Shown: positions 15,209 through 57,128, numbered from the stretch's first letter. The stretch is 64,000 nucleotides of DNA from a bacterium (GCA_021779915.1 JAJXZR010000029.1:12495-76494); one strand, 5' to 3'. Made by a program: numbers and translations. Notes: generated from the letters alone by a model not told the origin.

Positions 15209-15444
15209 GTGTCATCCTTGCGAAAGCGAGGATCCAGAGAAGTAAGACTGAAAAATTCCAAGAAACAAGAAGCAAGCTCCAAACAAATTAAAAATCACAA
15301 ATTCCAAACGAAAAAAGTTTTGAGTTTCGAATTTCGAATTTGGAAGATTGTATCTTGTTTGCCTGCCTACCGGTAGGTGGGTAATTTGTTTCTTGTCTCT
15401 TGGAATTTTACTTTCATGGATCCTCGCTTTCGCAAGGATGACAC
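15209..15444. repeat. MITE-like palindromic element, hairpin-TIR family with internal ccaagaaacaa/cctaccggtagg arms (H2)
   Basis: termini GTGTCATCCTTGCGAAAGCGAGGATCCAG ... GGATCCTCGCTTTCGCAAGGATGACAC are a perfect inverted repeat. Confidence 0.75.
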
Positions 15445-15456
15445 GGTGGAGTATCT

Positions 15457-15488
15457 TCTTGATAAACTCTATAACTTGATAAACTAAT
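15457..15488 (+). promoter_or_regulatory. CTTGATAAAC direct-repeat motif abutting the yebC start codon
   Basis: CTTGATAAACTCTATAACTTGATAAACTAAT then 4 nt then ATG; the same about 22-nt sequence precedes the ATGs at 667 and (rc) 37768. Confidence 0.5.
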
Positions 15489-15492
15489 TTAT

Positions 15493-16218
15493 ATGTCCGG
15501 TCATAGCCATTGGTCTGGTATAAAACGCAAAAAAGCGCTGGTTGATTCTAAAAGAGCCCAAAAATTTACTAAGTTGGGTAGGGCTATTACGATTGCCTCT
15601 CGAGAAGGAGGAGAAAATCCCGATTTCAACCCGAATTTACGCTTGGCTATCGAGAAAGCCAAAGAGTTTAATATGCCCAAAGATAAAATTCTGAATTCTA
15701 TCAAGAAAGGATCTTCTAAAAACGCTGAAGACCAACTGGAAGAAGTAACTTACGAAGCCCTGGGGCCGGAAGGTATAATGCTTGTTATTGAAACAATTAC
15801 AGACAATAGAAACCGTACAGTCTCAGAGATCAGGCACATTCTAGACGAACATGGCGGAAAAATGGCCGATGGAGGGGTGGGATGGAATTTTAGAAGAAGA
15901 GGGTTAATAACCTTTCAGGTTTTAGAGGAGCAAAAAGAAGAATTTGAATTAAAAGCTATTGAATGCTCGGTGGAAGACCTTATGGAGGAAGAAAAGGGTG
16001 CTGTTTCAGTTATATGCAGTCTTGAAGATATTGAAAAAATCAAAGAGAAGCTATCTGATTTTCCCATTATTGAAAATATTGTTGCTTATCTTTCTAACAA
16101 TCCGGTTGCTATTTCTGACAAAGTTCGAAAAAAATATGATATATTGTTAGACGATTTAGAGAATCAATCGGATGTTCAGGAAATCTGGGATAATGTCGAG
16201 AAAATAACGGTTATTTGA
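15493..16218 (+). CDS. yebC: YebC/PmpR family DNA-binding regulatory protein
   Basis: 241 aa; matches the YebC family along its full length. Confidence 0.85.
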   Translation: MSGHSHWSGIKRKKALVDSKRAQKFTKLGRAITIASREGGENPDFNPNLRLAIEKAKEFNMPKDKILNSIKKGSSKNAEDQLEEVTYEALGPEGIMLVIETITDNRNRTVSEIRHILDEHGGKMADGGVGWNFRRRGLITFQVLEEQKEEFELKAIECSVEDLMEEEKGAVSVICSLEDIEKIKEKLSDFPIIENIVAYLSNNPVAISDKVRKKYDILLDDLENQSDVQEIWDNVEKITVI

Positions 16219-16404
16219 TGAATAGTAGCGAATATAGGGCATATTATTCTATTTTATCGGTAAGACCCTTTATTTGACATATTATTAAGGTATGGTATTC
16301 CTTCAAAGTAAGGTATAAAGCGAGAAAAAGATATTTTGGTTTACTTAAAGAAAAAGAAATAATAATTTTGATTTTACTTTTAAAAAGAAAGGGGGTGAAA
16401 TTAA

Positions 16405-16677
16405 ATGAATAAAGAAGAATTAGTAGCTGCAATCGCTAAGAAAGCCGGTCTTTCAAAGAAAGACTCCGAAGGAGCCTTGAAATCCGCTTTGGAAGCCATT
16501 AAGGACGCCCTCAAAAAAGGGGGGAAGGTAACCTTGACCGGATTCGGAACTTTTATGGTCGCTAAACGAGCCGCCCGCAAAGGGGTAAACCCACAAACGG
16601 GAGCGGAAATCAAAATCCCAGCTCGAACAGTACCTAAGTTCAAACCGGGCAAAGCCCTCAAAGACGCCGTAAAATAG
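16405..16677 (+). CDS. hup: DNA-binding protein HU
   Basis: 90 aa HU fold with a GFGTF arm motif. Confidence 0.9.
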
Positions 16678-16708
16678 TCTTGGATAGAAACGAAATTAAA
16701 TAAGCAAA

Positions 16709-16738
16709 AAAGAGACCAAAAGTCTCTTTTTTGCTTTG
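16709..16738 (+). terminator. rho-independent terminator after hup
   Basis: AGAGACCAAAAGTCTCT hairpin plus TTTTTTG. Confidence 0.6.
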
Positions 16739-16785
16739 TAATAGAAATGCCAGCTATTTACAACCTTAAAAAATAGGAGTTACGT

Positions 16786-16880
16786 TATTAGTTCATAAAG
16801 TTCATAAAAAACATTAGAGGAAAATATTCCTTTTAACTTTACAAACTTTATAAACTTTCTAACTTTAAGAACTAGTTTGT
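16786..16880. repeat. degenerate copy of the TTCATAAAG/AACTTTATAAAC repeat module upstream of the GT4 gene
   Basis: gttcataaagttcataaa...aactttataaactttctaactttaag immediately before the ATG at 16881. Confidence 0.4.
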
Positions 16881-18038
16881 ATGCGTATTGGAGTCGATAT
16901 TAGATCTCTTAGTGCTGGAGGGCATTCTGGGGTGGAGGAGTATATTTTTAATCTTCTGCCTAATCTTTTCCGTTTGGGAAGGGAGGACCAGTTTGTTCTG
17001 CTTTACAACAGCTATTCCCGTGCTCTTCCGGAAAAAGTGAAAAAATGGGAAAAGTTACCGAACGTTAGTATTAAGGGATTTAAAATTCCCAGTAAATTGC
17101 TCAACGGTCTGCTTTGGCAGTTTAATTTTCCTTATCTCGATAAATTAATAGGCGGGGTGGATGTTTTTTTCTCTCCCAATATTACTTTCACTGCTGTTTC
17201 TGTAGGAACCCCCCACGTCATAACCATTCACGACTTATCTTTTGAGCTTTTTCCTCATTTTTTCAATTATTACAGGAGGTTGTGGCATTTTCTGGTTAAT
17301 CCTCGCAGACAGGCGAAAAAAGCAACGAAAGTAATTACTGTATCTAAATCGACGATGTCCGATGTAAACGAGCTGTACAGGATAAAAAAGAGCAAAATCA
17401 GACCGATTTATCTTGGGCTGTCTTCAATTTTTCAAAATTACACAAAAAATGAAAAGAAAGAAGAAAAAATTAGAAAAAAATATAAAATTCCCGCTAAACC
17501 CTTTATCCTTTACCTTGGTACTTTAGAGCCCAGAAAAAATATCGCTTCTTTGCTTTTGGCATTCAATGAATGGAAAAAGTCCTCTAAAGAAAATTACACG
17601 TTGGTAATTGCCGGAACAAAGGGGTGGTCCTTTCAGGAGATATTTCAATTGTCAGAGGAATCTCCTTACAAAAAAGATATTGTCTTTACCGGTGAGCTTC
17701 AAGAAAAAGATCGCCCCGCTATTTATAAAATGGCAAGCCTGTTTGTTTTCCCTTCTTTTTTGGAAGGTTTCGGTTTCCCACCCCTCGAGGCTCTTTCTTC
17801 AGGTGTCCCGGTAATTTGTTCGGCTTCTACTTCGCTTCTGGAAATATTTGGTGATCATTCCATTCTTGTCAATCCGCATGATGCAGGAGAATTGGCTTGG
17901 ACAATCGGCAGAGTCTTAGGCGACCAAGCCATTCAAGCTTCTTTGATTAAGGAAGGAGAGAAATATGCTAAGAAATTTACTTGGGAAAAAACAGCCAGGG
18001 AAACTTTGGAGGTGCTGAGAGAGGCAGGGGGAGAATAA
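16881..18038 (+). CDS. glycosyltransferase family 4
   Basis: GT-B fold; C-terminal GT4 motif E(G/A)FG.P..EA (FLEGFGFPPLEALSSGVPVI). Confidence 0.75.
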   Translation: MRIGVDIRSLSAGGHSGVEEYIFNLLPNLFRLGREDQFVLLYNSYSRALPEKVKKWEKLPNVSIKGFKIPSKLLNGLLWQFNFPYLDKLIGGVDVFFSPNITFTAVSVGTPHVITIHDLSFELFPHFFNYYRRLWHFLVNPRRQAKKATKVITVSKSTMSDVNELYRIKKSKIRPIYLGLSSIFQNYTKNEKKEEKIRKKYKIPAKPFILYLGTLEPRKNIASLLLAFNEWKKSSKENYTLVIAGTKGWSFQEIFQLSEESPYKKDIVFTGELQEKDRPAIYKMASLFVFPSFLEGFGFPPLEALSSGVPVICSASTSLLEIFGDHSILVNPHDAGELAWTIGRVLGDQAIQASLIKEGEKYAKKFTWEKTARETLEVLREAGGE

Positions 18039-18152
18039 AATGACGAATGACGAATATCGAATATCGAATGACGAACCAATAATAGAAGATATTTTTTGCC
18101 ATTTTATATTTGGATTTGATTCGTCATTCGTCATTTGGAATTTGTCATTTTA
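18039..18152. repeat. TGACGAA-heptad palindromic element (T1) between convergent stop codons
   Basis: atgacgaatgacgaatatcgaatatcgaatgacgaa ... ttcgtcattcgtcatttggaatttgtcatt. Confidence 0.7.
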
Positions 18153-18154
18153 TC

Positions 18155-18826
18155 CTAGTTTCTCCTAATCACACACCCTTCTTCTCTTTCCTTCTTAAAT
18201 TTATTAACAATCTTAAAGCGAATTTGGTTTTCTCCAGGTTTTAGGAATACGGGAGAAGAAAAGACTCCATTTTTGTCAACCAAGATATCTTCTCCGTTAA
18301 TAAAAATGTGTCCTTCTGGCTGGATGGTACCTCGAAGCTCTATTGTTTCTTCATTTGTGTTGAAGGGACAAGTAGCCGGACTGCTCAAGGCAAAAGAGGG
18401 CTGGCTGTAGAGAGGTAAAATTATTTTTATTAAAAAATATATCAACGTCATACTTATCATTGTTCCCATTAGCAAAATAAAATTTCTATAGTTTACATAA
18501 CGAAAAATTTTTGAATAGGGGCTTATCGGATGAAAAGAAAAAGAATCTTTTTCGACTCTTTTCTTTCTTTTTTCATAAAGCAAGATGGCTTTTTTGGGAT
18601 CAATTTGAACAAAATTAGCATAGCTTCCAACAATACCTCTGGAGTAAATATTGGGAGGAAGTGAGAAAAAATCATTTTGTTCCAGAGCGATTATGTATTC
18701 TTTACTTATAGTAAGAGACTTAGCGACTGTTTCGATCGTTAACCCCAATGATTCCCTTCCATTTTTCAAATAATCCCCCAAATTTTCTTCGTTAATTTTT
18801 CTAACCTTAAAGGCTGAGTCTCTCAT
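18155..18826 (-). CDS. RodZ-like helix-turn-helix membrane protein (XRE-type HTH, single TM, C-terminal DUF4115-like domain)
   Basis: N-terminal HTH, central TM helix, C-terminal beta-rich domain. Confidence 0.5.
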   Translation of the reverse strand: MRDSAFKVRKINEENLGDYLKNGRESLGLTIETVAKSLTISKEYIIALEQNDFFSLPPNIYSRGIVGSYANFVQIDPKKAILLYEKRKKRVEKDSFSFHPISPYSKIFRYVNYRNFILLMGTMISMTLIYFLIKIILPLYSQPSFALSSPATCPFNTNEETIELRGTIQPEGHIFINGEDILVDKNGVFSSPVFLKPGENQIRFKIVNKFKKEREEGCVIRRN

Positions 18827-20750: not shown

Positions 20751-20754
20751 GTGT

Positions 20755-21005
20755 GTGTCATTCTCGGCGTGTCGACCGGGAATCCAGGAGGATAGTATTG
20801 GTCTAACAAAATTCCAAATTCCAAGAAACAAATTACCCACCTACCGGTAGGCAGGCAAACAAGATACGATTTTCCAAATTAAAAATTAAAAACATTATTT
20901 TTTTATTTTAAATTTGTGATTTTGAATTTGTTTGGAACTTGTTTCTTGCTTCTTGGAATTTTATGGTCTTACTTACATAGATCCTCGCTTTCGCAAGGAT
21001 GACAC
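20755..21005. repeat. MITE-like palindromic element, hairpin-TIR family with internal arms (H3), inverted relative to H2
   Basis: GTGTCATTCTCGGCGTGTCGACCGGGAATCCAGG ... GGATCCTCGCTTTCGCAAGGATGACAC; internal ttacccacctaccggtaggcaggcaaacaag. Confidence 0.75.
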
Positions 21006-21044
21006 GGAGGCAGGAACTTAAAACTAACAAATTAATCTACCTCT

Positions 21045-22391
21045 TTGCAAAAATTCAAACAAATTCTATTTTTTCTAACTATCTTATCTCTTCCCATTGA
21101 GCTGGCTTTTGTTAAAATTGGTGGTAGGGATATTAAATTCTGGTTTATTTTTGCCGTTTTGGGGGGTGTTGTTGTTTTGGCGGATTGGTGGAAGAAGGGA
21201 ATAAAAGAAATAACCAGTTTGAAAAGTTTTTATCTGGGAATTGCTACGATATTTTTTTCTTGCATTGCCCTGGTCGATTCGCCTGTTAAATCTTTCTCGA
21301 TCCAGCAACTGGTAATTCTTATCTCGCTGATTACGCTGGCTATGTTTGTTGAAAAATATTCCAAGAGATGCAAAAAAAAAATTCCCTCAGGACTTGCCAT
21401 TGGCATGATCTTAAGCTCAATTCTGGCTATTTGGCAAAACATTGCTTTTAATCTAGGAAATCAAAGTCTTGAGATTATGGCGGCAAGACCCAATGCGCTT
21501 TTTCCGGAACCCGATTGGCTAGGGTTTTATTTGTCTTTAGGGCTGGTGTTCTTCGTTGTTTCAACAAGAAATAAACAGTTACCGGAATTTTTAAAAAACA
21601 AATTTTCTTTGAGCATTTTTTGGCTGTTAAATATTACGGCACTTATCATTACAGTCGCTAGAGCGAGTTGGTTGGCTTTTATTTTGGAAGCTGGCGTCAC
21701 ATCCTTGCTATTAGCCACTTCTCTTTACCTTAGAAAAAAAGATTTAAAAGAAGCTCTAACTGCCTTTTTAAAAAAAGGGGGGGCTTTTGTTGCTCTGATT
21801 TTAATTTCTATTGCCATTATCCAAATCTTCCAATTAACGCGCTTCAATCTTTTTGATCGAATGAGAAGTATTTTTTTTAAACAACATATTGTCACTATGG
21901 CTTATAATCCGATTACGAAAGAGAGCTTAAAAATAAATTTGGAAGAAAAAGAGACTTACATTCAAAAAGGATTTGAAATTAAAGATGCTTATGTGCCCGA
22001 TGAAAATGTTATAAGTCGAGAAGATAAGGCAGTAAGTGCGTGGGACATTATCAAGAAGCATCCGATCCTAGGAAACGGATTGGGAATTATTCTCATTGAA
22101 ACCAACTATCAACACAACGCCAATAATCTCTTTCTTGAATGGTGGGCAAGCGCCGGTATTGGAGGGTTGATGGCAATTACCGGAACCCTTGTTTATTTTA
22201 TTGTCAAAGGATTGACTTTTATTAAAAATGAGAAGCGAAAATCCATTCTGCTAATTGCCGGAACCTTGGGATTTATCGCACTCAATCTCTTTAACGCTTC
22301 GATACTCCTCGCTTTTGCATGGTTTTTTCTAGGATATCTTTTTTCGCTTACCCACGTGTCATCCCGGCCTCCGAGCCGGGATCCAGGATGA
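21045..22391 (+). CDS. O-antigen ligase/polymerase-like integral membrane protein
   Basis: polytopic protein with a Wzy_C-like loop (TVARASWLAF) and a periplasmic insert; the C-terminal 11 aa and the stop codon lie inside repeat H5. Confidence 0.4.
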   Translation: MQKFKQILFFLTILSLPIELAFVKIGGRDIKFWFIFAVLGGVVVLADWWKKGIKEITSLKSFYLGIATIFFSCIALVDSPVKSFSIQQLVILISLITLAMFVEKYSKRCKKKIPSGLAIGMILSSILAIWQNIAFNLGNQSLEIMAARPNALFPEPDWLGFYLSLGLVFFVVSTRNKQLPEFLKNKFSLSIFWLLNITALIITVARASWLAFILEAGVTSLLLATSLYLRKKDLKEALTAFLKKGGAFVALILISIAIIQIFQLTRFNLFDRMRSIFFKQHIVTMAYNPITKESLKINLEEKETYIQKGFEIKDAYVPDENVISREDKAVSAWDIIKKHPILGNGLGIILIETNYQHNANNLFLEWWASAGIGGLMAITGTLVYFIVKGLTFIKNEKRKSILLIAGTLGFIALNLFNASILLAFAWFFLGYLFSLTHVSSRPPSRDPG

Positions 22392-22394
22392 CAC
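22356..22394. repeat. solo hairpin unit of the GTGTCATCC family (H5) overlapping the 3' end of the upstream CDS
   Basis: GTGTCATCCCGGCCTCCGAGCCGGGATCCAGGATGACAC. Confidence 0.7.
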
Positions 22395-23263: not shown

Positions 23264-23392
23264 AAAATGACGAATGACAAATGTCGAATGACGAATTAAT
23301 GGCAAAATCCAAATATCAAAAAATTTTGTCATTTGGTATTTGAAATTTATCGTTTTATTAGAAATTAGGTGAATTAGGTTAATTAGAAATTT
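23264..23392. repeat. TGACGAA-heptad element (T2) with an ATTAGAAATTAGGTGAATTAG right terminus
   Basis: aatgacgaatgacaaatgtcgaatgacgaatt ... ttttgtcatttgg ... ttagaaattaggtgaattaggttaattagaa. Confidence 0.6.
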
Positions 23393-23396
23393 TATA

Positions 23397-24623: not shown

Positions 24624-27600
24624 ATGTCTCTTTCGAAAAAAGTTAGTGGCGGAAAACAGCAAGATTTTGAGGAAATTGCCCTTCGTGATACAACCAGAAG
24701 ATTAAGCAGGGCTTCAGAAGAGGAACAGGCTGCCATTCGAGCGGCTGGGTCCGGTCTTCCTTACCTTGATCTCAATATTTTTCCCGTAGGGGCGGAAACT
24801 TTAAGCATTCTTCCCGAAGAAGTGGCTCGACTAGGAGAAATTACCGTTATCCAGAAAGCGGGACGAGAAATTAAGGTAGGAGTTTTTGACCCCAACAACA
24901 AAACCACTCAAGAAGTTTTGGAAAAGTTGGAAAAAGACGAAGGATATCGTATTAAACTTTACATCGTTTCCAGAACCAGTCTTAAAAGAACTTGGGATAG
25001 ATATAAGCACATTAATCTAGCTTCTTCCCTGGAAGATATGATGCTGACACTTTCTGGCAAGGATTTAGAAAAATTTGAGAACGACATTAAAGAGCTTGTT
25101 GACCTAAAGAAAAGAATCCGGGAACTTCCAACCACCGAAGTATTAAACGTCATTATCGCCGGTGCAATCAAGATGGATGCTAGCGATATCCACACCGAAC
25201 CTCAAAAAGATGATGTTCGCATCCGTTATCGTCTGGATGGAGTTTTGCATGACATTGTCCATATTCCTTACAATTACTACCCTTACGTCCTTTCTCGAGT
25301 GAAAATGCTTTCTGGACTCAAACTCAATATCAAAGACCGTTCACAAGACGGACGTTTTTCCATCAAAACTAACAAGTACGAGATTGACGTTCGTATTTCA
25401 ATCCTTCCGGGAAATTATGGAGAAAACATAGTAATGAGGCTTCTCAACCAAAACGAAACTGGATTCACTTTGGAAGATTTAGGTCTTCGCGGAAGAGCCG
25501 CTGAACAACTGGCTATTCAAATGGCCAAACCTAACGGAATGATTCTTAATACCGGACCTACCGGTTCTGGAAAAACCACCACTCTTTATGCTTGTATCCG
25601 CAAATTGAATTCTCCCGACACAAAAATAATCACTATTGAAGACCCGATAGAATATCGTTTGGCAGGTGTATCCCAAACTCAAGTTCACAAGGAAAGAGGA
25701 TATGATTTTGCTAATGGTCTTCGAGCGATTGTTAGACAAGACCCTGATGTAATTTTGGTTGGGGAAATCAGAGACGAAGAAACGGGAGATATTGCAGTCC
25801 ACGCCTCTTTAACGGGACATCTGGTGCTTTCCACCCTTCACACTAACAGCGCCGCCGGAGCTATTCCTCGTTTGATTGATTTGGGAATCCGGCCTTCTCT
25901 TATCACTCCTTCGATTAATTGTATTATTGCTCAAAGGCTAGTTCGAAAACTTTGTCCTTTTTGCCGGGAAGAATATGTTCCTGCTCAGGAGACTTTAGAA
26001 AGCATGAGTCGCTTCTTGTCGATTATTTCCCCTAAAGCGCGAGTAGAAGTTCCGAAAAATATCACCACTCTTTATCGGGCAACGGGCTGTCCAAAATGCC
26101 ACGGATTGGGATATAAAGGCAGAATCGGAATATTTGAAATTTTTGAAGTCACTCCTTCTATTGAGAAACTAGTTCTAGAAATGGCTCCTGCTTCCGATCT
26201 TTTGGCTGCTTCTATGGAAGAAGGGATGGTAACAATGCTTCAAGACGGAATCCTTAAGGCCGCCGAAGGAATGACTTCGATGGAAGAGGTTGAAAGAGTG
26301 ACGGGATCCGGCCAATACCTGCAAGAAATTTACGAAAAAATTATGGTGCAACTTCTTTCACTCCAGCTAAAAATCACCGCAAAGCAAGGCGAAGAAGTGG
26401 TTGGTTGCGGATATGAAGCAAAAAATATCGCTGACTACATTCAAAAAGCATCAAATAAAGATATTCTTAATTATATTGTGGCTGGAGGGCTTTCTTTCGA
26501 TGCGGGAGATATCCACATGGAACCGCAAGGAGATAGAATAAAAATCCGCTATCGGATTGACGGTATTTTGGAAGATATTACTGATATAAAGGCAAGCGAC
26601 TATTTGCCGGTTCTTTCTCAAATAAAACTACTGGCCGGACTCAAAACCGATTCCCACGCTGCCGTTCAAGACAGTCGTTTTGGGATCAGTCTCGAAACAC
26701 CGATCCGCGACATCCCTAATAAACAAATAGACGTGAGAGTTTCCATTATTACTGGAGGGTATGGAGAAACAGTGGTGATGAGACTTTTGCATAAATCAGC
26801 TCAAGCCCTGGAAGTAGAAAAAATCGGTTTCCGACCACAACTACTGGACAAACTATTACGCGAAATTGAAAAACCCAACGGAATGATTCTTAACACAGGA
26901 CCAACCGGTTCTGGAAAAACTACCACTTTGTACTCTCTTCTTAATCGATTGAATAAACCCGAAGTTAAAATCATCACTGTGGAAGACCCAATTGAGTATC
27001 GCTTGGCGGGAATATTGCAAACTCAGGTTTCAGTTGATGAAGGATACAATTTTGCCGACGCTCTGCGAGCGCTCCTTCGCCAAAATCCGGATATTATGAT
27101 GATTGGGGAAATTAGAGATGAAGAAACGGGAAAAATTTCTATCCAAGCCTCTTTGACAGGGCACTTGGTACTTTCCACTTTGCATACCAACAATGCCGTA
27201 GCTTCTATCCAACGTATGATCAATATGAACATCGACCCCACTGACATCGCCACCGCTACCAACGCCATGATGGCTCAAAGATTGGTCAGAAAGCTTTGTC
27301 CTGTTTGCAAAAAGAAAGTTCCTATTACTCCCGATAACAAAAAAAGATTGGAAGAAATTATTGCCGGAATTCACCCCTCGACTGGAATTTCAATTCCAAG
27401 CAACACAGTTGACTTTCTATATGAACCAGTTGGCTGTTCAGAGTGTAAAAACATAGGTTTCAAGGGAAGATTTCCCGTCGCAGAACTAATGCTAATGACT
27501 CCGACTCTCGAAGAAATGGTAGCCCACTTTGCCATCACTTCTGAAATTGAAAAACAAGCCATCCAAGAAGGAATGCTCACTATGACCCAAGACGCAGCCC

Positions 27601-27659
27601 TCCGCATCGCCGACGGAGAAACCAGTCTGGCCGAAGCAGCGAGATTGACAGAGCTATAA
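24624..27659 (+). CDS. tandem-fused double GspE/PilB-family ATPase (T2SSE_N domain plus two complete ATPase cores)
   Basis: two Walker A motifs GPTGSGKTTTLY at about aa 312 and 754, two Walker B DPDxIxxGEIRDEET boxes, two His boxes GHLVLSTLHTN, two tetracysteine motifs. Confidence 0.8.
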   Translation: MSLSKKVSGGKQQDFEEIALRDTTRRLSRASEEEQAAIRAAGSGLPYLDLNIFPVGAETLSILPEEVARLGEITVIQKAGREIKVGVFDPNNKTTQEVLEKLEKDEGYRIKLYIVSRTSLKRTWDRYKHINLASSLEDMMLTLSGKDLEKFENDIKELVDLKKRIRELPTTEVLNVIIAGAIKMDASDIHTEPQKDDVRIRYRLDGVLHDIVHIPYNYYPYVLSRVKMLSGLKLNIKDRSQDGRFSIKTNKYEIDVRISILPGNYGENIVMRLLNQNETGFTLEDLGLRGRAAEQLAIQMAKPNGMILNTGPTGSGKTTTLYACIRKLNSPDTKIITIEDPIEYRLAGVSQTQVHKERGYDFANGLRAIVRQDPDVILVGEIRDEETGDIAVHASLTGHLVLSTLHTNSAAGAIPRLIDLGIRPSLITPSINCIIAQRLVRKLCPFCREEYVPAQETLESMSRFLSIISPKARVEVPKNITTLYRATGCPKCHGLGYKGRIGIFEIFEVTPSIEKLVLEMAPASDLLAASMEEGMVTMLQDGILKAAEGMTSMEEVERVTGSGQYLQEIYEKIMVQLLSLQLKITAKQGEEVVGCGYEAKNIADYIQKASNKDILNYIVAGGLSFDAGDIHMEPQGDRIKIRYRIDGILEDITDIKASDYLPVLSQIKLLAGLKTDSHAAVQDSRFGISLETPIRDIPNKQIDVRVSIITGGYGETVVMRLLHKSAQALEVEKIGFRPQLLDKLLREIEKPNGMILNTGPTGSGKTTTLYSLLNRLNKPEVKIITVEDPIEYRLAGILQTQVSVDEGYNFADALRALLRQNPDIMMIGEIRDEETGKISIQASLTGHLVLSTLHTNNAVASIQRMINMNIDPTDIATATNAMMAQRLVRKLCPVCKKKVPITPDNKKRLEEIIAGIHPSTGISIPSNTVDFLYEPVGCSECKNIGFKGRFPVAELMLMTPTLEEMVAHFAITSEIEKQAIQEGMLTMTQDAALRIADGETSLAEAARLTEL

Positions 27660-27702: not shown

Positions 27703-27844
27703 GTGTCATCCCGGGCTTGACCCGGGATCCAGTTAGACTAACAGAATGTTATTTTAACGTGTATTTGTAAAAAACTAAACAAAAGAACGTTTTGTTAGAC
27801 TAACACTATTTTCCTGGATCCCGGCTCAGAGGCCGGGATGACAC
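27703..27844. repeat. MITE-like element, hairpin-TIR family, short subtype (H6)
   Basis: GTGTCATCCCGGGCTTGACCCGGGATCCAG ... CTGGATCCCGGCTCAGAGGCCGGGATGACAC; internal ttagactaaca modules. Confidence 0.75.
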
Positions 27845-30795: not shown

Positions 30796-30796
30796 A

Positions 30797-30914
30797 ATAA
30801 ATGACGAAGTTCGAATGACGAATGACGAATTGTGGTGTTCACTATCCTCACAATCAATCGTCGCCTTCGGTGACACCTTAATTTGTCATTCGTCATTCGA
30901 ACTTCGTCATTTAT
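30797..30914. repeat. TGACGAA-heptad palindromic element (T3) between convergent stop codons
   Basis: aatgacgaagttcgaatgacgaatgacgaatt ... aatttgtcattcgtcattcgaacttcgtcattt; nearly perfect inverted halves. Confidence 0.75.
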
Positions 30915-33789: not shown

Positions 33790-33961
33790 GTGTCACCCTA
33801 ACTCCACCTGTCATTCCCGCGAAGGCGGGAATCCAGGAAGATTTTATTAAATTAATAGAATGTTATTTTAGTTATTTTCTTAACTATAGAACCCAAACAA
33901 TCATTCTTTTAGTCTAATAAAGTATTAGTTTACTGGATTCCCGCCTTCGCGGGAATGACAC
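33790..33961. repeat. MITE-like element, hairpin-TIR family, short subtype (H7)
   Basis: GTGTCA...TGTCATTCCCGCGAAGGCGGGAATCCAGG ... CTGGATTCCCGCCTTCGCGGGAATGACAC; compensatory hairpin variant. Confidence 0.75.
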
Positions 33962-36850: not shown

Positions 36851-37095
36851 GTGTCATCCCGGGCTTGACCCGGGATCCAAGAGAATAGAAAATTGCTCTA
36901 ATTAACCTAATTATACCCACCGCCTAAGGCGGGATCCCGCTTTGCGGTGATAATTGACCTAAAAAAGCACCAAACAATAAAAAATAAATCTTGAAAATTG
37001 GTTCTTGGCATTTTATTTAGAACAATTAGATCAATTAGGGTAATTAGAATAATTGGCGAGTCTAACTAGATCCCGGGTCAAGCCCGGGATGACAC
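36851..37095. repeat. MITE-like element, hairpin-TIR family, long subtype (H8), inverted relative to H1
   Basis: GTGTCATCCCGGGCTTGACCCGGGATCCAAG ... CTAGATCCCGGGTCAAGCCCGGGATGACAC; internal aattagggtaattagaataatt module. Confidence 0.75.
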
Positions 37096-37818: not shown

Positions 37819-37926
37819 AAAATATTTTGTTTCAAATTGGGAAACTGTGTTTTAAAAACTATGATTTTCTTATAGGAAATCCCCTAGTTTTTAAAACACA
37901 GTTTCCCAATTTGAAACAAAATATTT
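37819..37926. repeat. 42-bp perfect inverted repeat separated by about 35 bp in the divergent trmD / 37993 intergenic region
   Basis: aaaatattttgtttcaaattgggaaactgtgttttaaaaact ... agtttttaaaacacagtttcccaatttgaaacaaaatatttt. Confidence 0.7.
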
Positions 37927-37992
37927 TTTGAAGATTAAACTTTATCAACTAGTTAATTCATAGTATAAAATTATAAAGCTTTAAATTCAATT

Positions 37993-44759: not shown

Positions 44760-44899
44760 GTGTCATCCCGGGCTTGACCCGGGATCCAGGAGAGTGGTAT
44801 TAGTCTAATAAAATGTTAGTTTGTTCAATCTCTTACAATGCACATTAAAATAACATTCTGTTAGTCTAACTGGATCCCGGGTCAAGCCCGGGATGACAC
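44760..44899. repeat. MITE-like element, hairpin-TIR family, short subtype (H9)
   Basis: GTGTCATCCCGGGCTTGACCCGGGATCCAGG ... CTGGATCCCGGGTCAAGCCCGGGATGACAC; nearly perfect. Confidence 0.8.
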
Positions 44900-45050: not shown

Positions 45051-45755
45051 ATGTTTGATACTCGTGGACTTGAAAAATTTTCCTTAGTTGAATGGCCTGG
45101 GAAAATGTCGGCCATCATTTTCACCGGCGGATGCAATTTTCGCTGTCCTTTTTGTCATAATCCGGAATTAGTAACTGAGCTTCAAAAGACACCGATTTAC
45201 CCCTGGGAAGAAATTGAAAAATTTCTTAACAAAAAAGTGGGGTGGATTGATGCGATTATTATCACTGGGGGGGAGCCTACTCTACAAGAGAGTTTACCTG
45301 AAATTCTCCAAAAAATTAAAAAAATGGGATACTTAACCGGAATCGCAACTAACGGAACCAATCCTGAAATGCTGGAAGAACTGATAAGAAAAAACTTGCT
45401 GGACAAGATAGCTATGGACATCAAAAGCTCCGAGGAAAAATATTATTTAGCAACAGGCACGAATGAAGTTGGCTTGGAAAAAATTAAAAAGAGTATCAAT
45501 TTGATAATCAACAGTGGAATCGAATATGATTTTAAAGTGACTTTAGCTCCAGGAATAGTCGAAACTAGCGATATTGAAGGAATCGGGAAATTCATTAAGG
45601 GAGCAAAAAAAGTCACTCTTCAACAATTCCGCCCCCTTAAAACACTTGACAAAACCTTCGAACACAAAGTACCCTATTCACTAGATACTATTAAAGAAAT
45701 GAAAGAAATTTTGGGTAGTTACGTTGAAAGTGTTAGTTTGGAAGGAATAGAATAA
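45051..45755 (+). CDS. nrdG: anaerobic ribonucleoside-triphosphate reductase activating protein-like radical SAM enzyme
   Basis: WPGKMS...GGCNFRCPFCHNPE matches the NrdG-type signature (WPG, GCN.RC..CHN). Confidence 0.6.
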   Translation: MFDTRGLEKFSLVEWPGKMSAIIFTGGCNFRCPFCHNPELVTELQKTPIYPWEEIEKFLNKKVGWIDAIIITGGEPTLQESLPEILQKIKKMGYLTGIATNGTNPEMLEELIRKNLLDKIAMDIKSSEEKYYLATGTNEVGLEKIKKSINLIINSGIEYDFKVTLAPGIVETSDIEGIGKFIKGAKKVTLQQFRPLKTLDKTFEHKVPYSLDTIKEMKEILGSYVESVSLEGIE

Positions 45756-45836
45756 AAATTTCAATTTCTAATTTTCAATTTTCAAACAATTTTCAATTTA
45801 TTAATTACTCAATTACATAAATAATACCCGTCTAGT

Positions 45837-45928
45837 GTGTCATCCTTGCGAAAGCGAGGATCCAGGAGAATGATATTAGACTAATAGAGTATTAATTTCC
45901 TGGATTCCCGCTTTCGCAGGAATGACAC
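45837..45928. repeat. MITE-like element, hairpin-TIR family, minimal subtype (H10)
   Basis: GTGTCATCCTTGCGAAAGCGAGGATCCAGG ... CTGGATTCCCGCTTTCGCAGGAATGACAC. Confidence 0.75.
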
Positions 45929-46016
45929 GTGTTTCTTTGTTTGAAAATTAATGAATTGTAAAATTGAAAATTGTTTGAAAATTGAAAATTAGAAATTGAA
46001 AATTTTTTAATACACT

Positions 46017-47108: not shown

Positions 47109-47157
47109 TGATTTGAATTTCTAATTCACCTAATTTTTAATTTACCTAATAAAATAA

Positions 47158-47390
47158 CCAAATTCCAAGAAACAAATTACAAACAAGAAACAATTTTCCA
47201 AATTAAAACATCCCACGTGTCATCCCCGGCGTGTTGACCGGGGATCTAGGAAAATTATATTTTACTAGTCTAATATAATTCTCCTGGATCCTCGCTTTCA
47301 CAAGGATGAAACGCTAAAAGGGTATTGTTTTGTATTTCGAATTTGTTTGTAATTTGTTTCTTGCTTCTTGGAATTTTTATTAGAACTTAT
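47158..47390. repeat. composite element (H11): hairpin-TIR core (47217-47322) flanked on the outside by ccaagaaacaa inverted arms
   Basis: arm ...aattccaagaaacaaattacaaacaag... | GTGTCATCCCCGGCGTGTTGACCGGGGATCTAGG ... CTGGATCCTCGCTTTCACAAGGATGAAAC | ...cttgcttcttggaatt arm. Confidence 0.7.
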
Positions 47391-47417
47391 GTAAATTAGA
47401 AATTAAACTAAAACCTC

Positions 47418-49673: not shown

Positions 49674-49702
49674 GGAATATAATTTTCAATTTGACTTATT
49701 TT

Positions 49703-49826
49703 TCTCCCCTTCAGATGAAGGGGAGTACCCCGTAGGGGGAGGGGTTTGATGCCGAAGGCCGAATTTTGATCGCTTCGCGTTCAAACCCTCCGCCCTTACG
49801 GGCACCTCCCTTCATCTGAAGGGAGG
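49703..49826. repeat. 124-bp GC-rich nested palindrome after the topA stop (G1)
   Basis: tctccccttcagatgaaggggag-taccccgtagggggaggggtttga ... tcaaaccctccgcccttacgggca-cctcccttcatctgaagggagg. Confidence 0.7.
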
Positions 49827-49872
49827 AAAAAGTCACCTTTTAGGTGAATTAGAAATTTTAATTATCTTTCCT

Positions 49873-52073: not shown

Positions 52074-52083
52074 AACAGATTTA

Positions 52084-52638
52084 CTATTTCTTTTTTCTTT
52101 GTTTTCTTCTTTTGAAGAGAAAGTAGGCTATTGGAATAAAAATAAGCATGAACAAAGCAATTGTTGTGTCCAAAAAAACATTGCTGTATCTTTTCCATAC
52201 TTCGCCAAAATAATAACCTACTGCAACCAGAAACGCCGATTTGATAGCGGTAGCAAAAAAATCAAGAATTAAAAACTTCCACCAAGGATACTGGGCAATA
52301 CCTGCGGTAATCAGAATAGGAAGCCCAACAAAGTGAGAAAGTTTCCCAAACACAATTACTTTTTTTCTGTTACTTTGAAAAAATATTTTGGCCTTTTCAA
52401 TTTCTTTTAGGGTAAAGCCAAAAAATTTGGCCAGTTTTGGCAATAGTTTTATGCCTCCAAAATACCCCAATGAATAATAAAGAAAATCCGCACTTAAGTC
52501 CCCAAAAACATGAGTTAGATAGCCAAGATAAATATTCATATAACCCAAACGAGAAAGAAATCCCACCGAAACCCCGGCAGTAGGACCCTCAGTAAAAGAG
52601 GCTAAAAAAATACCCAGATATTTTAGGAATTCAAACAT
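52084..52638 (-). CDS. DedA/TVP38 (SNARE-associated) family membrane protein
   Basis: 184 aa, 4-5 TM segments, DedA-like N-terminal block. Confidence 0.65.
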   Translation of the reverse strand: MFEFLKYLGIFLASFTEGPTAGVSVGFLSRLGYMNIYLGYLTHVFGDLSADFLYYSLGYFGGIKLLPKLAKFFGFTLKEIEKAKIFFQSNRKKVIVFGKLSHFVGLPILITAGIAQYPWWKFLILDFFATAIKSAFLVAVGYYFGEVWKRYSNVFLDTTIALFMLIFIPIAYFLFKRRKQRKKK

Positions 52639-53132
52639 AAAAATTTTTGAAAAATGGTCTAATCTATTTTACTAAAAAAAAATAATTTCACTAGCCCCAA
52701 AGTTATATTTTAGACGGCACAATGATTTACACTGGAATTGTTTTTTAATGGCTCAATTCGGCTACCTCTTTTTCAAATGCAGAAAGAAAAAAAGAGACTG
52801 GTTATTCAGTCCCTTTTGATAAAAACAAGAAATTAACAATTCTCCAATTTTTTTGTTCGAAATAAGCTGTCCCTCATTTCATCAATTAAAACTGCCGAGT
52901 ACATGAGGAAAATGGCAATGCCCAAGATTGTTGCGGCAAAAAGAGTAGCTATTTCTTCTTTCCATTCAAAAATAAAGTTTTCTACCTTTCTTATTTTTAT
53001 TTCAGAAGGTGAAAGCTCCCTCATTTTTTTAAAGGTCTTTTGTCTGTTATTTTTTATTCGCATCTTGTTTTCTCCTTTTTGACATAGAAAAATTTGCTAA
53101 TTTCTTTTATATATTATTACATTTGAAATTAG

Positions 53133-53525
53133 TTGGACGCAAGAAAAAAATTGGAGGATAAAATGGCAACGGCACTCGTTGACCAGAGAGGAAAAAGTTT
53201 TATTGGCCTTCTTTCCGCGGCAAAAAGAAGATTTCCCAAACAAGTTTATCTTTCTTCTGATGATATTAAAATTCTAAAGAGGAAAGTTTTTGAGGGAAGA
53301 TCAGCTTCATCCCTTGATGCAATTGAGGTGAAGTTAGGCAGAATACTTTATTTACGTCGGTGCCCCTATTGCAAAGAACCGATGATACAAATTAAAGTAT
53401 ATTCTCGCGAAGGGGGAAAGTATTCAAACTTCAAAAAACCACCGAAGAGGCTTGCAGACGAATACATTTGTACCAGTTGCAAAAGCCATTTTAGAGCCAT
53501 TAGAATTTTTCCAGATTTTTTCTGA
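53133..53525 (+). CDS. hypothetical zinc-ribbon protein
   Basis: CPYC...CTSC motif; terminator follows. Confidence 0.35.
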   Translation: MDARKKLEDKMATALVDQRGKSFIGLLSAAKRRFPKQVYLSSDDIKILKRKVFEGRSASSLDAIEVKLGRILYLRRCPYCKEPMIQIKVYSREGGKYSNFKKPPKRLADEYICTSCKSHFRAIRIFPDFF

Positions 53526-53547
53526 AAAGAAAATTTTCCTCCGATTT

Positions 53548-53590
53548 TTTGTATAACCCATCAAACATTGATTTTGATGGGTTTTTTATT
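53548..53590 (+). terminator. rho-independent terminator
   Basis: CCCATCAAACATTGATTTTGATGGG hairpin plus TTTTTTATTTTTT. Confidence 0.6.
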
Positions 53591-53592
53591 TT

Positions 53593-54783
53593 TTAATCGT
53601 TTTTTCCTAAAAATTTTACCCCTTCCTCAAATTTTCCCAACAGCATGTCAGCAGCAACTTCTTCAATTTCTTTTTCTCCCAAATCTCTTCCTCCCAAACC
53701 ATAAACATAGCTTTGAACCTTTCTGCCAGATTCCTCGAAACGGAAAAGGGTTGTCATAATTTCAGTACACAAAGGAGGAACACTACCAAAACTAAATGCT
53801 CGATCAAGAACGGCAATATTGGCTACGTTTCCGAGAGCTCTAAACATCTCTTCATAGGGAAAGGGACGAAAAAGTCGAACTTTGATCACTCCAACTTTAT
53901 GTCCTTTTTTGTGCAAGCTCTCGGCCACTGCCTTGGCCGTTCCTGCACTTCCTCCAAGCAAAATTATCACTCCTTCCGTATCTTTTTCAACTTGAAAAAC
54001 TTCGATTTTAGGATATTCCCGATTAGTTATTTTTGAAAGTTTTTGAGCCATTTCATCGTAGACCGATTCAACTTCTGCCATAGCTTCGGATTGGTCTATT
54101 TTAACTTCAAAAAAATGGTCTGGAAGAACAAGTGCTCCGAAAGTAATTTTTTTATCATTTTTAAGAAGGGAATAAGGATAATCATACTTTCCAATAAATT
54201 CCTCTACCTCATCATCGGGAAGAAGCTCTATCTTTTCCATCAAGTGAGAAGTTGAAAAGCCATCTTGAATTACCATCGCCGGCAATAATACTTTTTTGTT
54301 TTCTGCTATTTTAACGGCTAATAGATTGTGGTCATAGGCTTCTTGCGCTGTTTCGGAGAAAATTTGAATCCAACCAGCCTCCCTGACTCCCATAACATCC
54401 GAGTGGTCACAATGAATATTAATCGGGGAAGAAAGGGCTCGACTGGCAACGTTCATTACAATAGGAAGCCTCATCCCAGACGCCACTCCCAACATTTCAT
54501 ACATAAGTGCCAATCCCGCAGAGGAGCTTGCGGTCATTGCTCTAACTCCCGAGCTTGCCGCACCAATCGTCGCACTCATAACTGAATGCTCTGATTCGCA
54601 AGTGATTACCTCGCTGTCAACCTTGCCGTCAGCAACATATTTTATAAAATTCTCAATAATAGGGGTCTGGGGAGTAATAGGATAAACCGGAACTACTCCT
54701 GGATTGATCTGTCTCATTGCCTCGGCTGTCGCTTCGCCTCCAGTAAGAGCTAAATTTTTAGTTTTATTTTGATAAGACAACAC
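53593..54783 (-). CDS. porA: pyruvate/2-oxoacid:ferredoxin oxidoreductase alpha subunit (GTG start)
   Basis: N-terminal LTGGEATAEAMRQINPGVVPVYPITPQTP typical of the POR/KOR alpha subunit; 396 aa. Confidence 0.8.
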   Translation of the reverse strand: MLSYQNKTKNLALTGGEATAEAMRQINPGVVPVYPITPQTPIIENFIKYVADGKVDSEVITCESEHSVMSATIGAASSGVRAMTASSSAGLALMYEMLGVASGMRLPIVMNVASRALSSPINIHCDHSDVMGVREAGWIQIFSETAQEAYDHNLLAVKIAENKKVLLPAMVIQDGFSTSHLMEKIELLPDDEVEEFIGKYDYPYSLLKNDKKITFGALVLPDHFFEVKIDQSEAMAEVESVYDEMAQKLSKITNREYPKIEVFQVEKDTEGVIILLGGSAGTAKAVAESLHKKGHKVGVIKVRLFRPFPYEEMFRALGNVANIAVLDRAFSFGSVPPLCTEIMTTLFRFEESGRKVQSYVYGLGGRDLGEKEIEEVAADMLLGKFEEGVKFLGKND

Positions 54784-54789
54784 GAAAAA

Positions 54790-54902
54790 AATTAAAAGTT
54801 AAAAGTTAAAAATTCAAAAGAACAGTTTAAAATTCAAAATTTCCTTAAATAATTTTTAATTTTGAACTGTTCCTTTGAATTTTGCATTTTTAACTTTGAA
54901 TT
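54790..54902. repeat. palindromic module (F1) occupying the porD-porA intercistronic gap
   Basis: aaaagttaaaagttaaaaattcaaaagaacagttt ... aactgttcctttgaattttgcatttttaactttgaattg. Confidence 0.65.
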
Positions 54903-55156
54903 GTTACGCTTATCGCCTTCACCGGACACTCATTGACACAAACCAAACATCCCTTACAATAATCCGCATCCACTTCCACATCTTTTCCATTCTCCTTTAT
55001 ATTAATACAATCCTCCGGACAAAATAAAACACAAGTGTGACATTTAATGCACTTTTTTTGATCAATAAAAGCCCTCTTGGTTGCCCAGGAACCAGTTTTA
55101 TTTTTTTTACTATTACCACCGTCGGTAATGATTGCACCGAGAGAAACTTTATCCAC
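54890..55156 (-). CDS. porD: POR delta subunit, 2x[4Fe-4S] ferredoxin
   Basis: CIKCHTCVLFCP and CKGCLVCVNECP cluster motifs; 88 aa. Confidence 0.8.
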   Translation of the reverse strand: MDKVSLGAIITDGGNSKKNKTGSWATKRAFIDQKKCIKCHTCVLFCPEDCINIKENGKDVEVDADYCKGCLVCVNECPVKAISVTIQS

Positions 55157-55221
55157 GAGAAAAAGTTTAAAGTTAAAAATTCTATACTAAAAAAATTATT
55201 ACACTTGAAATATTTAACCCC

Positions 55222-55433
55222 GTGTCCTCCCGGGCTTGACCCGGGATCCAGTTAAACTCACTAAATTATTCTAATTGCTCTAATTAGCCTAATTATTCTA
55301 AACAAAATACCAAGAACCAATTAAAAAATTTTTGTTTATTGGTACTTAGTGCTTTTTAGAATAATTAGTATAATTAGGTTAACTAGAGTAATTCTCTACC
55401 CGCCTGGATCCCGGGTCAAACCCGGGATGACAC
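55222..55433. repeat. MITE-like element, hairpin-TIR family, long subtype (H12)
   Basis: GTGTCCTCCCGGGCTTGACCCGGGATCCAG ... CTGGATCCCGGGTCAAACCCGGGATGACAC; internal ctaattagcctaattattctaaacaaaata module. Confidence 0.8.
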
Positions 55434-55441
55434 CTTTCCTT

Positions 55442-56755
55442 TTAATTAAAAAGGCTCACGCCTCTTAGGACAACTAACACTAACGTTACTATCGAAATTC
55501 CAATCGCAAAAATTGCAAAAGCTTTTTTTCCTTGACCGTTTTCTTTGAATTCTTGAAGATAGTCTAATTCCTTTTGTTTCCTAAGAAATGTCAGCGAAGC
55601 AAAAATAAACAGCATCCAGACCAAGAAATAAAGCAAGGTACTTTCCGAATAGTATAGCAATTGTCCCGTCATAACCCCAAACAAGGATCCAATGATTGCC
55701 AGCGTAAGAGTCCTTTCCGTTTTGCCGGAGAGAAAAGCGACTATTCCAAAGATTAAAATAAAAAATTCAAGTGCCAAATAAAACAATATTTTATCGAGCA
55801 GTATGGGGTGATTTAATAAAACCGAATAATACGGCATAATAGAAACTTTTTCCGTATGCAGTATGAGAGGAGAAGTAGCTTGAGAAAAGGAAAAAAGAAA
55901 AACAAAGAAAAGATATTTTCCTTTCCCCTTTGTAATATTTCGAAGAAAAGAACCGTTTTTAGGAAGAGGTATTCCCAACTGTCTTTGGTCGGCTCTTTCC
56001 ACTTCTCCCCGATGTTTGAATAAAAAATCAAAAAAAACAATAATCCCGGTTCCAGAAGCCCACACCCACCAGCTGAGGGGATAATCCAAAACCGATGAGA
56101 TAAAAAGGAGAGCCAACGCACTGAAAAGATTCAACCAATCCATCACTTTTTCTTTGACTTTAACCGTCCACCAAAGAGCTAGGGAGGTTACCCCACAAAC
56201 TGCCACCACCAAAGAAGGGGTTCTTGCGAAATTAGCCGTTATGAACTCACTTTTCCCAAAATAAGCCAATATAACAAGAAAAATCGAAGAAGCCGACAAA
56301 GAGAAAAGAAACATCTCCAAATTTTGTCGCCAAGAGTCTTTAGAAAAAAACTGCGTACCCAAAAGGTAAAAAATAAAAAAAGTCACGTATTCACTCACTC
56401 CGGAAGTAAAACTCCCTTGATAACCTTCCCAGGATATTTGATGGTTGTTTGAATACAAAAACAACACCCCAAGAAGAAATGAAAGGAAAATTACCACCCA
56501 ATTAAACCTGTTTCTTTTCCACTCCAGCGCTCCTCTCTTGATAATCCCCATTAAACTGACGATCAGCATTAATCCTACAATCAGAATTAAAAAAGATTGT
56601 TTAAGAAGTTCTAGAGGTTTGGAGTAAAGAAAAAACAGCCAAGGAAAGGCGATTGTTAGAATAATCATTCCACTCTTCAAAATATTTTCTTCTATTTTTC
56701 CTTTTTCCAAATAACTTTTATTTCCCGCCAAATTAGAGTTTTGTATTTGAAACAT
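55442..56755 (-). CDS. polytopic integral membrane protein (O-antigen polymerase/ligase-like)
   Basis: 437 aa, at least 10 TM helices; no strong motif. Confidence 0.35.
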   Translation of the reverse strand: MFQIQNSNLAGNKSYLEKGKIEENILKSGMIILTIAFPWLFFLYSKPLELLKQSFLILIVGLMLIVSLMGIIKRGALEWKRNRFNWVVIFLSFLLGVLFLYSNNHQISWEGYQGSFTSGVSEYVTFFIFYLLGTQFFSKDSWRQNLEMFLFSLSASSIFLVILAYFGKSEFITANFARTPSLVVAVCGVTSLALWWTVKVKEKVMDWLNLFSALALLFISSVLDYPLSWWVWASGTGIIVFFDFLFKHRGEVERADQRQLGIPLPKNGSFLRNITKGKGKYLFFVFLFSFSQATSPLILHTEKVSIMPYYSVLLNHPILLDKILFYLALEFFILIFGIVAFLSGKTERTLTLAIIGSLFGVMTGQLLYYSESTLLYFLVWMLFIFASLTFLRKQKELDYLQEFKENGQGKKAFAIFAIGISIVTLVLVVLRGVSLFN

Positions 56756-56904
56756 TTTACAAAAATTATTGATTGCTTATATTATCCTATATTCTATTAT
56801 TATTGCAACTTCATTATGCTTATGGTAGAGTGATAGCGTAGATTAGAAATTTGATTAGTCATAGAACATTAAAATAATTACGATAAAATTCCAATAGCCA
56901 AGAT

Positions 56905-57128
56905 ACAATTTCCAAACAAGATACAATTTTCCAAATTTGAAAAACCAAACAACTTCACGTGTCATCCCGGCCCCTGAGCCGGGATCCAGAAAAATAATAT
57001 TTTAAGAGTCTAATATTATTCTCCTGGATCCCGGGTCAAGCCCGGGATGACACACTAAAAGGGTACTATTTGGAGTTTGTGATGCTTGAATTTGTTTGGA
57101 ATTTGTTTCTTGTTTCTTGGAATTTTTT
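56905..57128. repeat. composite element (H13): hairpin-TIR core (56959-57053) flanked by outer ccaaacaag / cttgtttcttgg arms
   Basis: GTGTCATCCCGGCCCCTGAGCCGGGATCCAG ... CTGGATCCCGGGTCAAGCCCGGGATGACAC. Confidence 0.75.

Follow-up and report, generated by a model that had tools for sequence, protein, structure and literature searches.

Reciprocally nested palindromes, one family with SRM-type hairpin ends, in the intergenic spacers of a CPR bacterium

How can two palindromic elements come to enclose each other, each serving as the shell in some copies and as the centred cargo in others? This question is raised by a 64,000-nucleotide stretch of DNA (GCA_021779915.1 JAJXZR010000029.1:12495-76494), hereafter called the window, which comes from a bacterium of the Candidate Phyla Radiation (CPR/Patescibacteria) with TopA homologues carrying the names Moranbacteria and Patescibacteria. 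The host genome is a tiny, reduced CPR genome. The GC content of the window is 37%, and its approximately 53 genes are compactly arranged housekeeping genes with no transposase gene among them. Most of the larger spacers hold a long imperfect palindrome composed of stacked modules. Two of them are of primary concern here: the hairpin-ended element, designated A, and the palindrome with arms AAAATTCCAAG ... CTTGGAATTTT, designated B. The explanation that we favour, and consider rather probable, is that families of non-coding palindromes colonised the spacers of this CPR genome and nested in each other, A being a derivative of the SRM-ssn-SRM unit described below and B being unrelated to it.

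Composites of A and B

In two composites the ends of A are outermost and B lies inside, exactly as proposed in the initial annotation. The A(B)A copy at 15209..15444 (no strand assigned) has two ends of the same hairpin type, h1 (CCTTGCGAAAGCGAGG; 15209-15237 and 15416-15444), and encloses module B (15252-15409), one arm of which bears the additional small hairpin CCTACCGGTAGG (15366-15377). The other copy, at 20755..21005, is oriented oppositely, terminates with h2 (20755-20787) and h1 (20977-21005) and carries B at 20808-20962, the hairpin CCTACCGGTAGG being found at 20840-20851; here the end is separated from B by a subterminal stretch of A type, about 20 nt long (GGAGGATAGTATTGGTCTAAC). 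The reversed arrangement, with B arms outside and a complete short A at their centre, was also read correctly. B(A)B at 47160..47377 has in its middle an A of 96 bp (47217-47312, ends h2 and h1) and is itself enclosed by a third palindromic layer, the G-type arms at 47109-47417. B(A)B at 56885..57126 contains an A of 95 bp (56959-57053, ends h3 and h4), and in both B(A)B copies A is preceded by CAC and followed by NCTAAAAGGGTA. By their coordinates, the inner and outer centres lie within 0.5-5 bp of each other (midpoint offsets of 4, 5, 4 and 0.5 bp in the four composites). The suspicion that the arms of B might be nothing but A/T-rich look-alikes was dispelled: they are true homologues, because the right arms are 89-93% identical across 44 nt. 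With at most one mismatch allowed, motif GGATGACAC gave 31 matches versus 6.05 expected and motif CCAAGAAACAA gave 24 versus 4.12, and neither count was reached in 100 shuffles. Every composite folds into one long DNA hairpin, with z-scores of -12.7 (15209), -5.1 (20755), -9.1 (47160) and -9.8 (56885). B located within A has in one arm 19 nt more (CCACCTACCGGTAGGCAGG) than B surrounding A, where these 19 nt are missing.

Identities between the composites were taken from pairwise global alignments; MAFFT alignment of all four misaligned the left arms. Across 231 aligned columns the two A(B)A copies turned out to be 86.1% identical, and for the two B(A)B copies the figure is 85.8% over 232 columns, junctions included in both cases, and homology between the paired composites ends at the ends of the outer element. 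Therefore, the four copies do not represent four independent events. At least one nesting event took place for each order, and one is documented; the resulting composite was then copied whole into another spacer, unrelated to the first. Thus, the idea of reciprocal nested insertion holds in the sense that each of the two families acts both as a shell and as centred cargo, and it has to be given up as a record of four separate insertions. Since each composite is present at two unrelated loci and is bounded by the ends of the outer family, A ends and B ends have each been competent for copying, the former having carried A(B)A and the latter B(A)B. The hairpin types differ even between composites that are approximately 86% identical (h2/h1 at 47217 versus h3/h4 at 56959; h1/h1 at 15209 versus h2/h1 at 20755).

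Ends of A and their counterparts in other genomes

The ends of A are inverted repeats, complementary at up to 30 of 30 positions, and are laid out as GTGTC, AT[C/T]C, a GC stem-loop that varies, GG[A/G]AT and CCAG, with the mirror image at the opposite end. GTGTC followed by a variable hairpin and C can be recognised in 24 of the 27 ends. The hairpins fall into five types, h1-h5, and left and right ends draw on a mixture of them. The same order of elements (GTC, AT[T/C]CC...GG[A/G]AT, C) constitutes the SRM/NTS motif published in 2025 (Nat Commun, PMC11893778). SRM stands for the generalised Ssn-related motif, the site at which the GIY-YIG nuclease SsnA recognises and cleaves single-stranded DNA; cleavage depends critically on GTC upstream of the palindrome and binding on the C just after it (PMC11893778). 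When the pattern HGTCWYN(0-2)YYVSBRHN(0-5)WNVSBRGN(0-2)RNCYNB was used, with GTC 5' and C 3' of the palindrome, ten hairpins of the window fitted exactly versus 0.16 expected from shuffles. The Neisseria Transformation Sequence (NTS), CGTCATTCCCGCGMAVGCGGGAATCYRG, contains dRS3 (PMC11893778), and a close version of it is present in the element A with cargo E at 33790..33961, the hairpins of which (TGTCATTCCCGCGAAGGCGGGAATCCAG) correspond to the neisserial NTS consensus with one mismatch (33809-33836 in the window). Canonical dRS3 (ATTCCC-N8-GGGAAT) is found only in h5 hairpins (33812-33831 and 33938-33957), and in the other four types the stems are of the form ATCC/ATTC...GGAT/GAAT, their conserved four-base ends being separated by 11-15 nt. 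The left terminus of the same element is partly duplicated (33790-33810).

Paired ends of this kind are present in Neisseria gonorrhoeae (36 places), Azospirillum, Legionella and others, while at least 120 metagenome contigs, their GC ranging from 0.28 to 0.69, contain the exact 30-nt end with h4. In contigs L211 (1131-1491), L118, L189 and L119 an open reading frame (ORF) of 96-131 aa with GIY-YIG signature lies between two inverted SRMs. These ORFs match Pfam PF01541 with E from 1e-15 to 1e-17, and the spacing of their Tyr-Tyr-Glu residues (11 and 47 residues) equals that of Y6/Y17/E64 in SsnA. Homologues with about 70% identity are very numerous in Patescibacteria, Moranbacteria, Omnitrophota, Deltaproteobacteria and others; in the PDB the GIY-YIG protein had no sequence match. 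Because the identical 30-nt end flanks genes of approximately 100 aa (SRM-ssn-SRM) in metagenomes, A is best read as a putative non-coding, non-autonomous counterpart of this unit, resembling a MITE (miniature inverted-repeat transposable element). A further feature was noticed at SRM termini. Partial copies of the terminus, of which the window has the single duplication just mentioned, occur in tandem just outside SRM pairs and are mirrored on both sides in L221 (30-290), and at 1586-1810 of L119 there are five repeats, 45-46 nt apart, each starting with a (G/T)(G/A)TGACAC variant of GGGATGACAC.

A shares with the SRM/NTS-Ssn system (PMC11893778) the oriented hairpin motif, GTC before and C after it, the high copy number and, at the metagenome loci, the association of identical ends with GIY-YIG genes. 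It differs from this system in the CPR host and in the use of inverted pairs, which bound 30-190 bp of non-coding cargo and are nested with other palindrome families; besides, the role published for SRM/NTS-Ssn is restriction of transforming single-stranded DNA rather than transposition. Likeness to bacterial MITEs (Correia/CREE, Nezha, RPE) is seen in small size, absence of coding capacity, intergenic location, terminal inverted repeats, the ability to fold as one hairpin and lineage-specific expansion. Unlike them, A has neither a target-site duplication nor a parent DDE insertion sequence in the window, and its nesting is reciprocal and strictly centred, whereas nesting of MITEs is occasional.

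All 14 elements of the window are single hairpins or single inverted pairs, and the cargo of A is C at four sites, E at three and B at two. The minimal A (45837..45928, 92 bp) consists of a pair of SRM hairpins around a core in which TTAGACTAA occurs once, and lies inside F-type 7-nt periodic arms (45754-46006), so that A is enclosed by F once and by B twice. Besides the element with NTS-like hairpins, cargo E is carried by A at 44760..44899 (140 bp, perfect 30-nt ends) and at 27703..27844 (142 bp, ends h4 and h3). Cargo C, the arms of which are tandem 9-mers TTAnnCTAA, is enclosed by A at 13785..14004, with further A(C)A copies at 36851-37095, 55222-55433 and 63194-63419. There are also two miniature forms, a mini-A of 39 bp (22356..22394), in which one complete end is directly followed by GGATGACAC, and a single-hairpin mini-A of 32 bp (11324-11355). 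The former supplies the last codons and the stop of a Wzy-like ORF (21045-22391), and in the related contigs L243 and L244, where this element is missing, the gene has a different end.

Module B in other phyla and the wider set of palindromes

Arms of B were searched for in the genome collection with a loose 18-base pattern, so that most of the at least 110 matches are due to chance; the matches listed did not include the genome of the window itself. At least about 25 of them are real B-type palindromes, standing alone, 75-190 bp in length and with arms homologous for 25-40 nt past the pattern. Among the matches listed, such stand-alone copies belong to Saccharibacteria, Berkelbacteria, Paceibacterota, Moraniibacteriota, Omnitrophica, Acidobacteriota and a metagenome-assembled genome labelled Thermoplasmata, though this last label (L026 etc.) may result from mis-binning. 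No A hairpin was found at the stand-alone loci among the matches listed. Since B palindromes stand alone in other phyla without an A hairpin, B is an independent, cross-phylum family of AT-rich palindromes with arms of 7-nt units, unrelated to A. Near-identical AT-rich arms were also observed in high-GC genomes, L025, L077, L093 (Acidobacteriota, GC 0.57) and L081 (Omnitrophica), and their presence in unrelated high-GC phyla suggests horizontal spread of an undescribed element. No ORF is present inside any B and no Rfam family corresponds to it, plasmids searched by BLAST with a B element contained nothing similar, and in the literature the arm sequences matched only primers. The family is apparently undescribed. 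Viral contigs contained no copy of the A end or of the B arm.

Periodicity of the arms was estimated from their self-identity, which at a lag of 7 nt amounted to 0.46-0.58 for B and 0.63-0.76 for D and at a lag of 9 nt to 0.61-0.63 for C, the background being 0.27-0.29 with a standard deviation of 0.08. Arms of B, D and F are tandem 7-mers. The 9-mer of C, which composes the arms at 13826-13962, 55262-55393 and 63236-63376, is also present once at the centre of the minimal A of 92-96 bp. Heptamer repeats are known in cyanobacteria, where the STRR family is represented by intergenic tandem 7-nt units of obscure origin; unlike those, the tandem units described here make up both halves of a long inverted repeat, and their families cross phyla. 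Arrays of the TIGR-Tas type were considered and rejected, as the units here are 7-9 nt long and belong to inverted-repeat arms, and the window has no Tas-like gene.

Module D, a 7-nt periodic palindrome with the unit AATGACG, stands alone at 18039..18154 and also at 23264-23396, 30796-30910 and 58135-58270, and is placed inside G arms at 59813-60000. In CPR-like metagenome contigs with the same modules D is nested in A (L171, L228, L174, L162), and A(E)A is found inside F (L191, L138). The existence of A(C)A, A(E)A, F(A)F, G(D)G, A(D)A and F(A(E)A)F makes the pattern of both orders a general property that extends beyond A and B.

Two more palindromes of the window were noted. A GC-rich one with 59-nt arms (49674-49872; arms 49699-49757 and 49773-49831) fills the spacer between TopA and glycosyltransferase genes, which has 17 bp in the sister species, and the independent contig L003 ends within this palindrome. 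A perfect one with 43-nt arms, 100% complementary, and a 23-nt loop (37819-37927) separates the divergent TrmD-like gene and a gene for a 393-aa protein, and has no family elsewhere in the window. Rfam scan of the window registered three tRNAs and nothing else. The tRNA gene at 8852-8924 has its 30-nt 3' part present twice in exact copies (8896-8925 and 8955-8984), with the small hairpin GTCGCCTGAGGCGAC between them; the region 8852-8984 looks like an integration scar at the tRNA 3' end or a place where a small hairpin element was inserted. Among the coding sequences, the one at 2846-4000 encodes a fusion of a PD-(D/E)XK nuclease and a Mu Gam-like 'TOTE conflict system' domain, while a 1011-aa protein with two PilB/T2SSE ATPase modules and its single-module paralogue occupy 11994-13775 and 24624-27659. 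The coding direct repeats D1 and D12 are accounted for by these paralogues.

Gain in the lineage and explanations of the nesting

Eight same-species contigs (L001-L003, L238-L242), which come from at least seven separate assemblies and are 99.77-100% identical, were compared with the window. Contigs often terminate inside the elements. An artefact of assembly was considered and rejected, as independent ENA, NCBI and Logan assemblies give identical sequence. All eight contigs carry every element unchanged, so there is no sign of ongoing movement. A few kb past the end of the window strains do differ: L239 has at 15066-16778 an IS1595-family DDE transposase and a Fic/RhuM gene, and L238 and L240 have other ORFs there.

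The situation changes when the window is compared with its syntenic relatives, L004 (TopA 79%) and L243 with L244 (YebC 60-61%); the closest non-self proteins in the databases are 79% identical for TopA and 61% for YebC. In the sister species L004 the spacer between SerRS and rSAM genes has 139 bp and no A, versus 291 bp here with the element at 44760..44899, and its DnaJ-TopA spacer contains a different palindrome in place of G(B(A)B)G. In L243/L244 the places of both A(B)A copies, of one A(C)A and of two D elements are taken by spacers that measure 9-101 bp. The spacer is missing altogether from L244 at one of the D sites, and the A(C)A site 13785..14004 corresponds to an empty spacer of 27-63 bp. 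In total, 24 SRM-like hairpins were counted in the 64-kb window versus 0 in 57.6 kb of the syntenic relatives. Because the relatives have short empty spacers and no SRMs, the elements are lineage-specific insertions rather than conserved regulatory DNA. An internal control for conserved non-coding DNA at 60-61% identity of YebC is available in the same region: the YebC-HU spacer (16219-16404, with a TTGACA promoter and 5' leader) and the terminator hairpin of HU (16678-16760) are conserved in L243/L244. The databases contain no genome of intermediate relatedness that might show B without A at the same site. Thus, recent mobility, argued for from the beginning, is borne out between species by these gains, and within the species it finds no confirmation in the eight unchanged contigs.

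As for the mechanism, we infer that the elements integrate into transiently single-stranded DNA. On a folded long palindrome the loop at the dyad centre would be the only persistently unpaired target, and since nothing but this loop stays unpaired, any family could land at the centre of any other. Module A may owe its mobility to an Ssn-type nuclease that acts in trans and whose gene lies in another part of the genome or has since been lost, and its autonomous form would have the same ends enclosing a gene for a GIY-YIG single-strand DNA nuclease of approximately 100 aa. Exchange of hairpin types between homologous copies would reflect gene conversion between SRMs. To our knowledge, GIY-YIG enzymes are not a class that mobilises DNA in such a way.

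Several circumstances weigh against this explanation. The ssn gene was not found in approximately 79 kb of same-species sequence (the window and about 15 kb of flanks), and mobilisation by Ssn in trans is therefore unproven here. Published activity of Ssn is cleavage of single-stranded DNA limiting transformation, and an IS-like origin is mentioned there only as speculation (PMC11893778); since nothing beyond cleavage and limitation of transformation has been demonstrated for Ssn, its involvement in transposition is hypothetical. No target-site duplication accompanies A, as the flanks of 13 A elements share no common direct repeat. Copies of TTAGNCTAA that flank the cargo in A have the central base in 'direct' configuration in three cases and in 'inverted' configuration in two, and TTAGNCTAA, being palindromic itself, cannot discriminate between a duplication and an inverted repeat. 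Nesting of A and B is documented by a single independent event per order, exact junctions of B are blurred by variation of its centre between copies, and B has no known mover. Finally, base-by-base comparison of the eight same-species contigs revealed no empty-site or polymorphic allele and no indel in any element. A bolder version, according to which mobile palindromes integrate specifically at tips of hairpins or cruciforms and colonise each other like 'Russian dolls', A being an Ssn-driven transposon-like element, B an undescribed family of CPR, Acidobacteriota and Omnitrophica, and the tandem units of the arms footprints of insertion and excision at the centre, is in our opinion doubtful as a whole.

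The main rival of the nested colonisation proposed here is mosaic recombination, in which SRM hairpins are sites of exchange, AT-rich palindromes are 'RS'-like filler, and both orders originate from shuffling of cassettes. It accounts for the swapping of hairpins and the diversity of cargo, namely for the mixture of h1-h5 between ends and between composites of about 86% identity and for an A shell with four different cargos, B, C, D and E, and it agrees with the proposal that dRS3 is a target of recombinase in Neisseria (PMC1797815). The closest described relative of A is the neisserial intergenic mosaic element (NIME; dRS3-RS-dRS3, PMC1797815), where GC-rich hairpins of 20 bp with conserved outer bases and a variable centre also flank AT-richer repeat segments of many families. 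However, NIMEs form long alternating arrays by genes of surface proteins, while single inverted pairs in housekeeping spacers and no alternating dRS3-RS arrays are found here; the cargo is itself a long palindrome, and AT-rich arms outside the hairpin pair are absent from the NIME description. In B(A)B the region beyond B is free of SRMs, and exchange at SRMs therefore cannot put B arms around A. B is also found without any SRM in other phyla, and strict centring is not predicted by recombination of this type. Taken together, this makes the mosaic origin an unlikely explanation of the nesting.

Less probable still is the assumption that the palindromes are hairpins functional for the host (bidirectional terminators, sites of RNA stability or nucleoid-binding sites), which diversified in place by slippage and inverted duplication and never moved; the nesting would in that case be one palindrome growing in layers. 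A long hairpin is present in nearly every spacer, B and D start with AAAA and end with TTTT, D lies between convergent genes, and arms made of tandem 7- or 9-mers suggest slippage. Against this, the same modules with sharp boundaries occupy unrelated loci, some of the palindromes (44760, 56885, 37819) separate divergent genes, the same spacers of the relatives lack these modules but keep the true promoter and terminator, and their identical ends are spread over genomes with GC of 0.28-0.69. The elements do not qualify as intrinsic terminators, for which a short GC-rich stem with a T-run after it is expected at the gene 3' end: a scan for terminators in the window gave 13 sites versus 17.1 expected and none in the composites, and true terminators, such as that of HU, are separate. 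A scan for promoters there gave no specific signal. The elements may, as a secondary effect, influence transcription.

Single-strand transposition by an HUH enzyme (TnpA of IS200/IS605 or RAYT), with the elements being REPIN- or PATE-like, was the mechanism initially suggested, and we consider it very improbable. Hairpin-forming ends, non-coding intergenic elements, absence of target-site duplications and nesting at hairpins are all in line with it, and likeness to REP/BIME-RAYT was remarked upon in the Ssn paper (PMC11893778). REP/BIME, REPIN-RAYT and PATEs of IS200/IS605 are likewise short GC-rich extragenic hairpins, often in inverted pairs, and REP/RAYT systems have a small single-domain nuclease gene between the same repeats with vastly more numerous non-autonomous copies. 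However, Pfam registered no HUH/Y1 or RAYT gene among the window genes or in the same-species flanks, the ORF between identical ends in metagenomes encodes a GIY-YIG enzyme and not an HUH/Y1 one, and the motif matches SRM rather than REP. In IS200/IS605 the left and right subterminal hairpins are unlike and act on one strand, and there are no terminal inverted repeats. The ends of A are true terminal inverted repeats with hairpins on opposite strands. The least probable scenario, derivation of one composite from the other by circular permutation through a shared circular intermediate, had the presence of the same two modules in both composites in its favour and is excluded because A(B)A and B(A)B have no junction in common (A core to B end in the former, B centre to A end in the latter): a permuted A(B)A would retain its A-core/B-end junction and have A ends back to back, while B(A)B has an intact, normally oriented A and new B-centre/A-end junctions.

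Nesting of repeats as such is not unprecedented. New here are SRM/NTS-bounded units of the NIME or MITE type in a CPR genome, interlocked with apparently undescribed periodic AT-rich palindromes. In practice such elements break CPR assemblies and create spurious ORFs. For the biology of the family, the locus bears on the role and spread of SRM/NTS hairpins: non-coding units bounded by SRM act like MITEs, with a lineage-specific burst, sharp ends and cargo taken to new loci, and the same 30-nt end is common to organisms with 28% to 69% GC. A second cross-phylum family, that of periodic AT-rich palindromes, apparently undescribed, is revealed beside them, and the reciprocal centred nesting of the two gives a testable hint that the loops of hairpins may serve as a target of integration.

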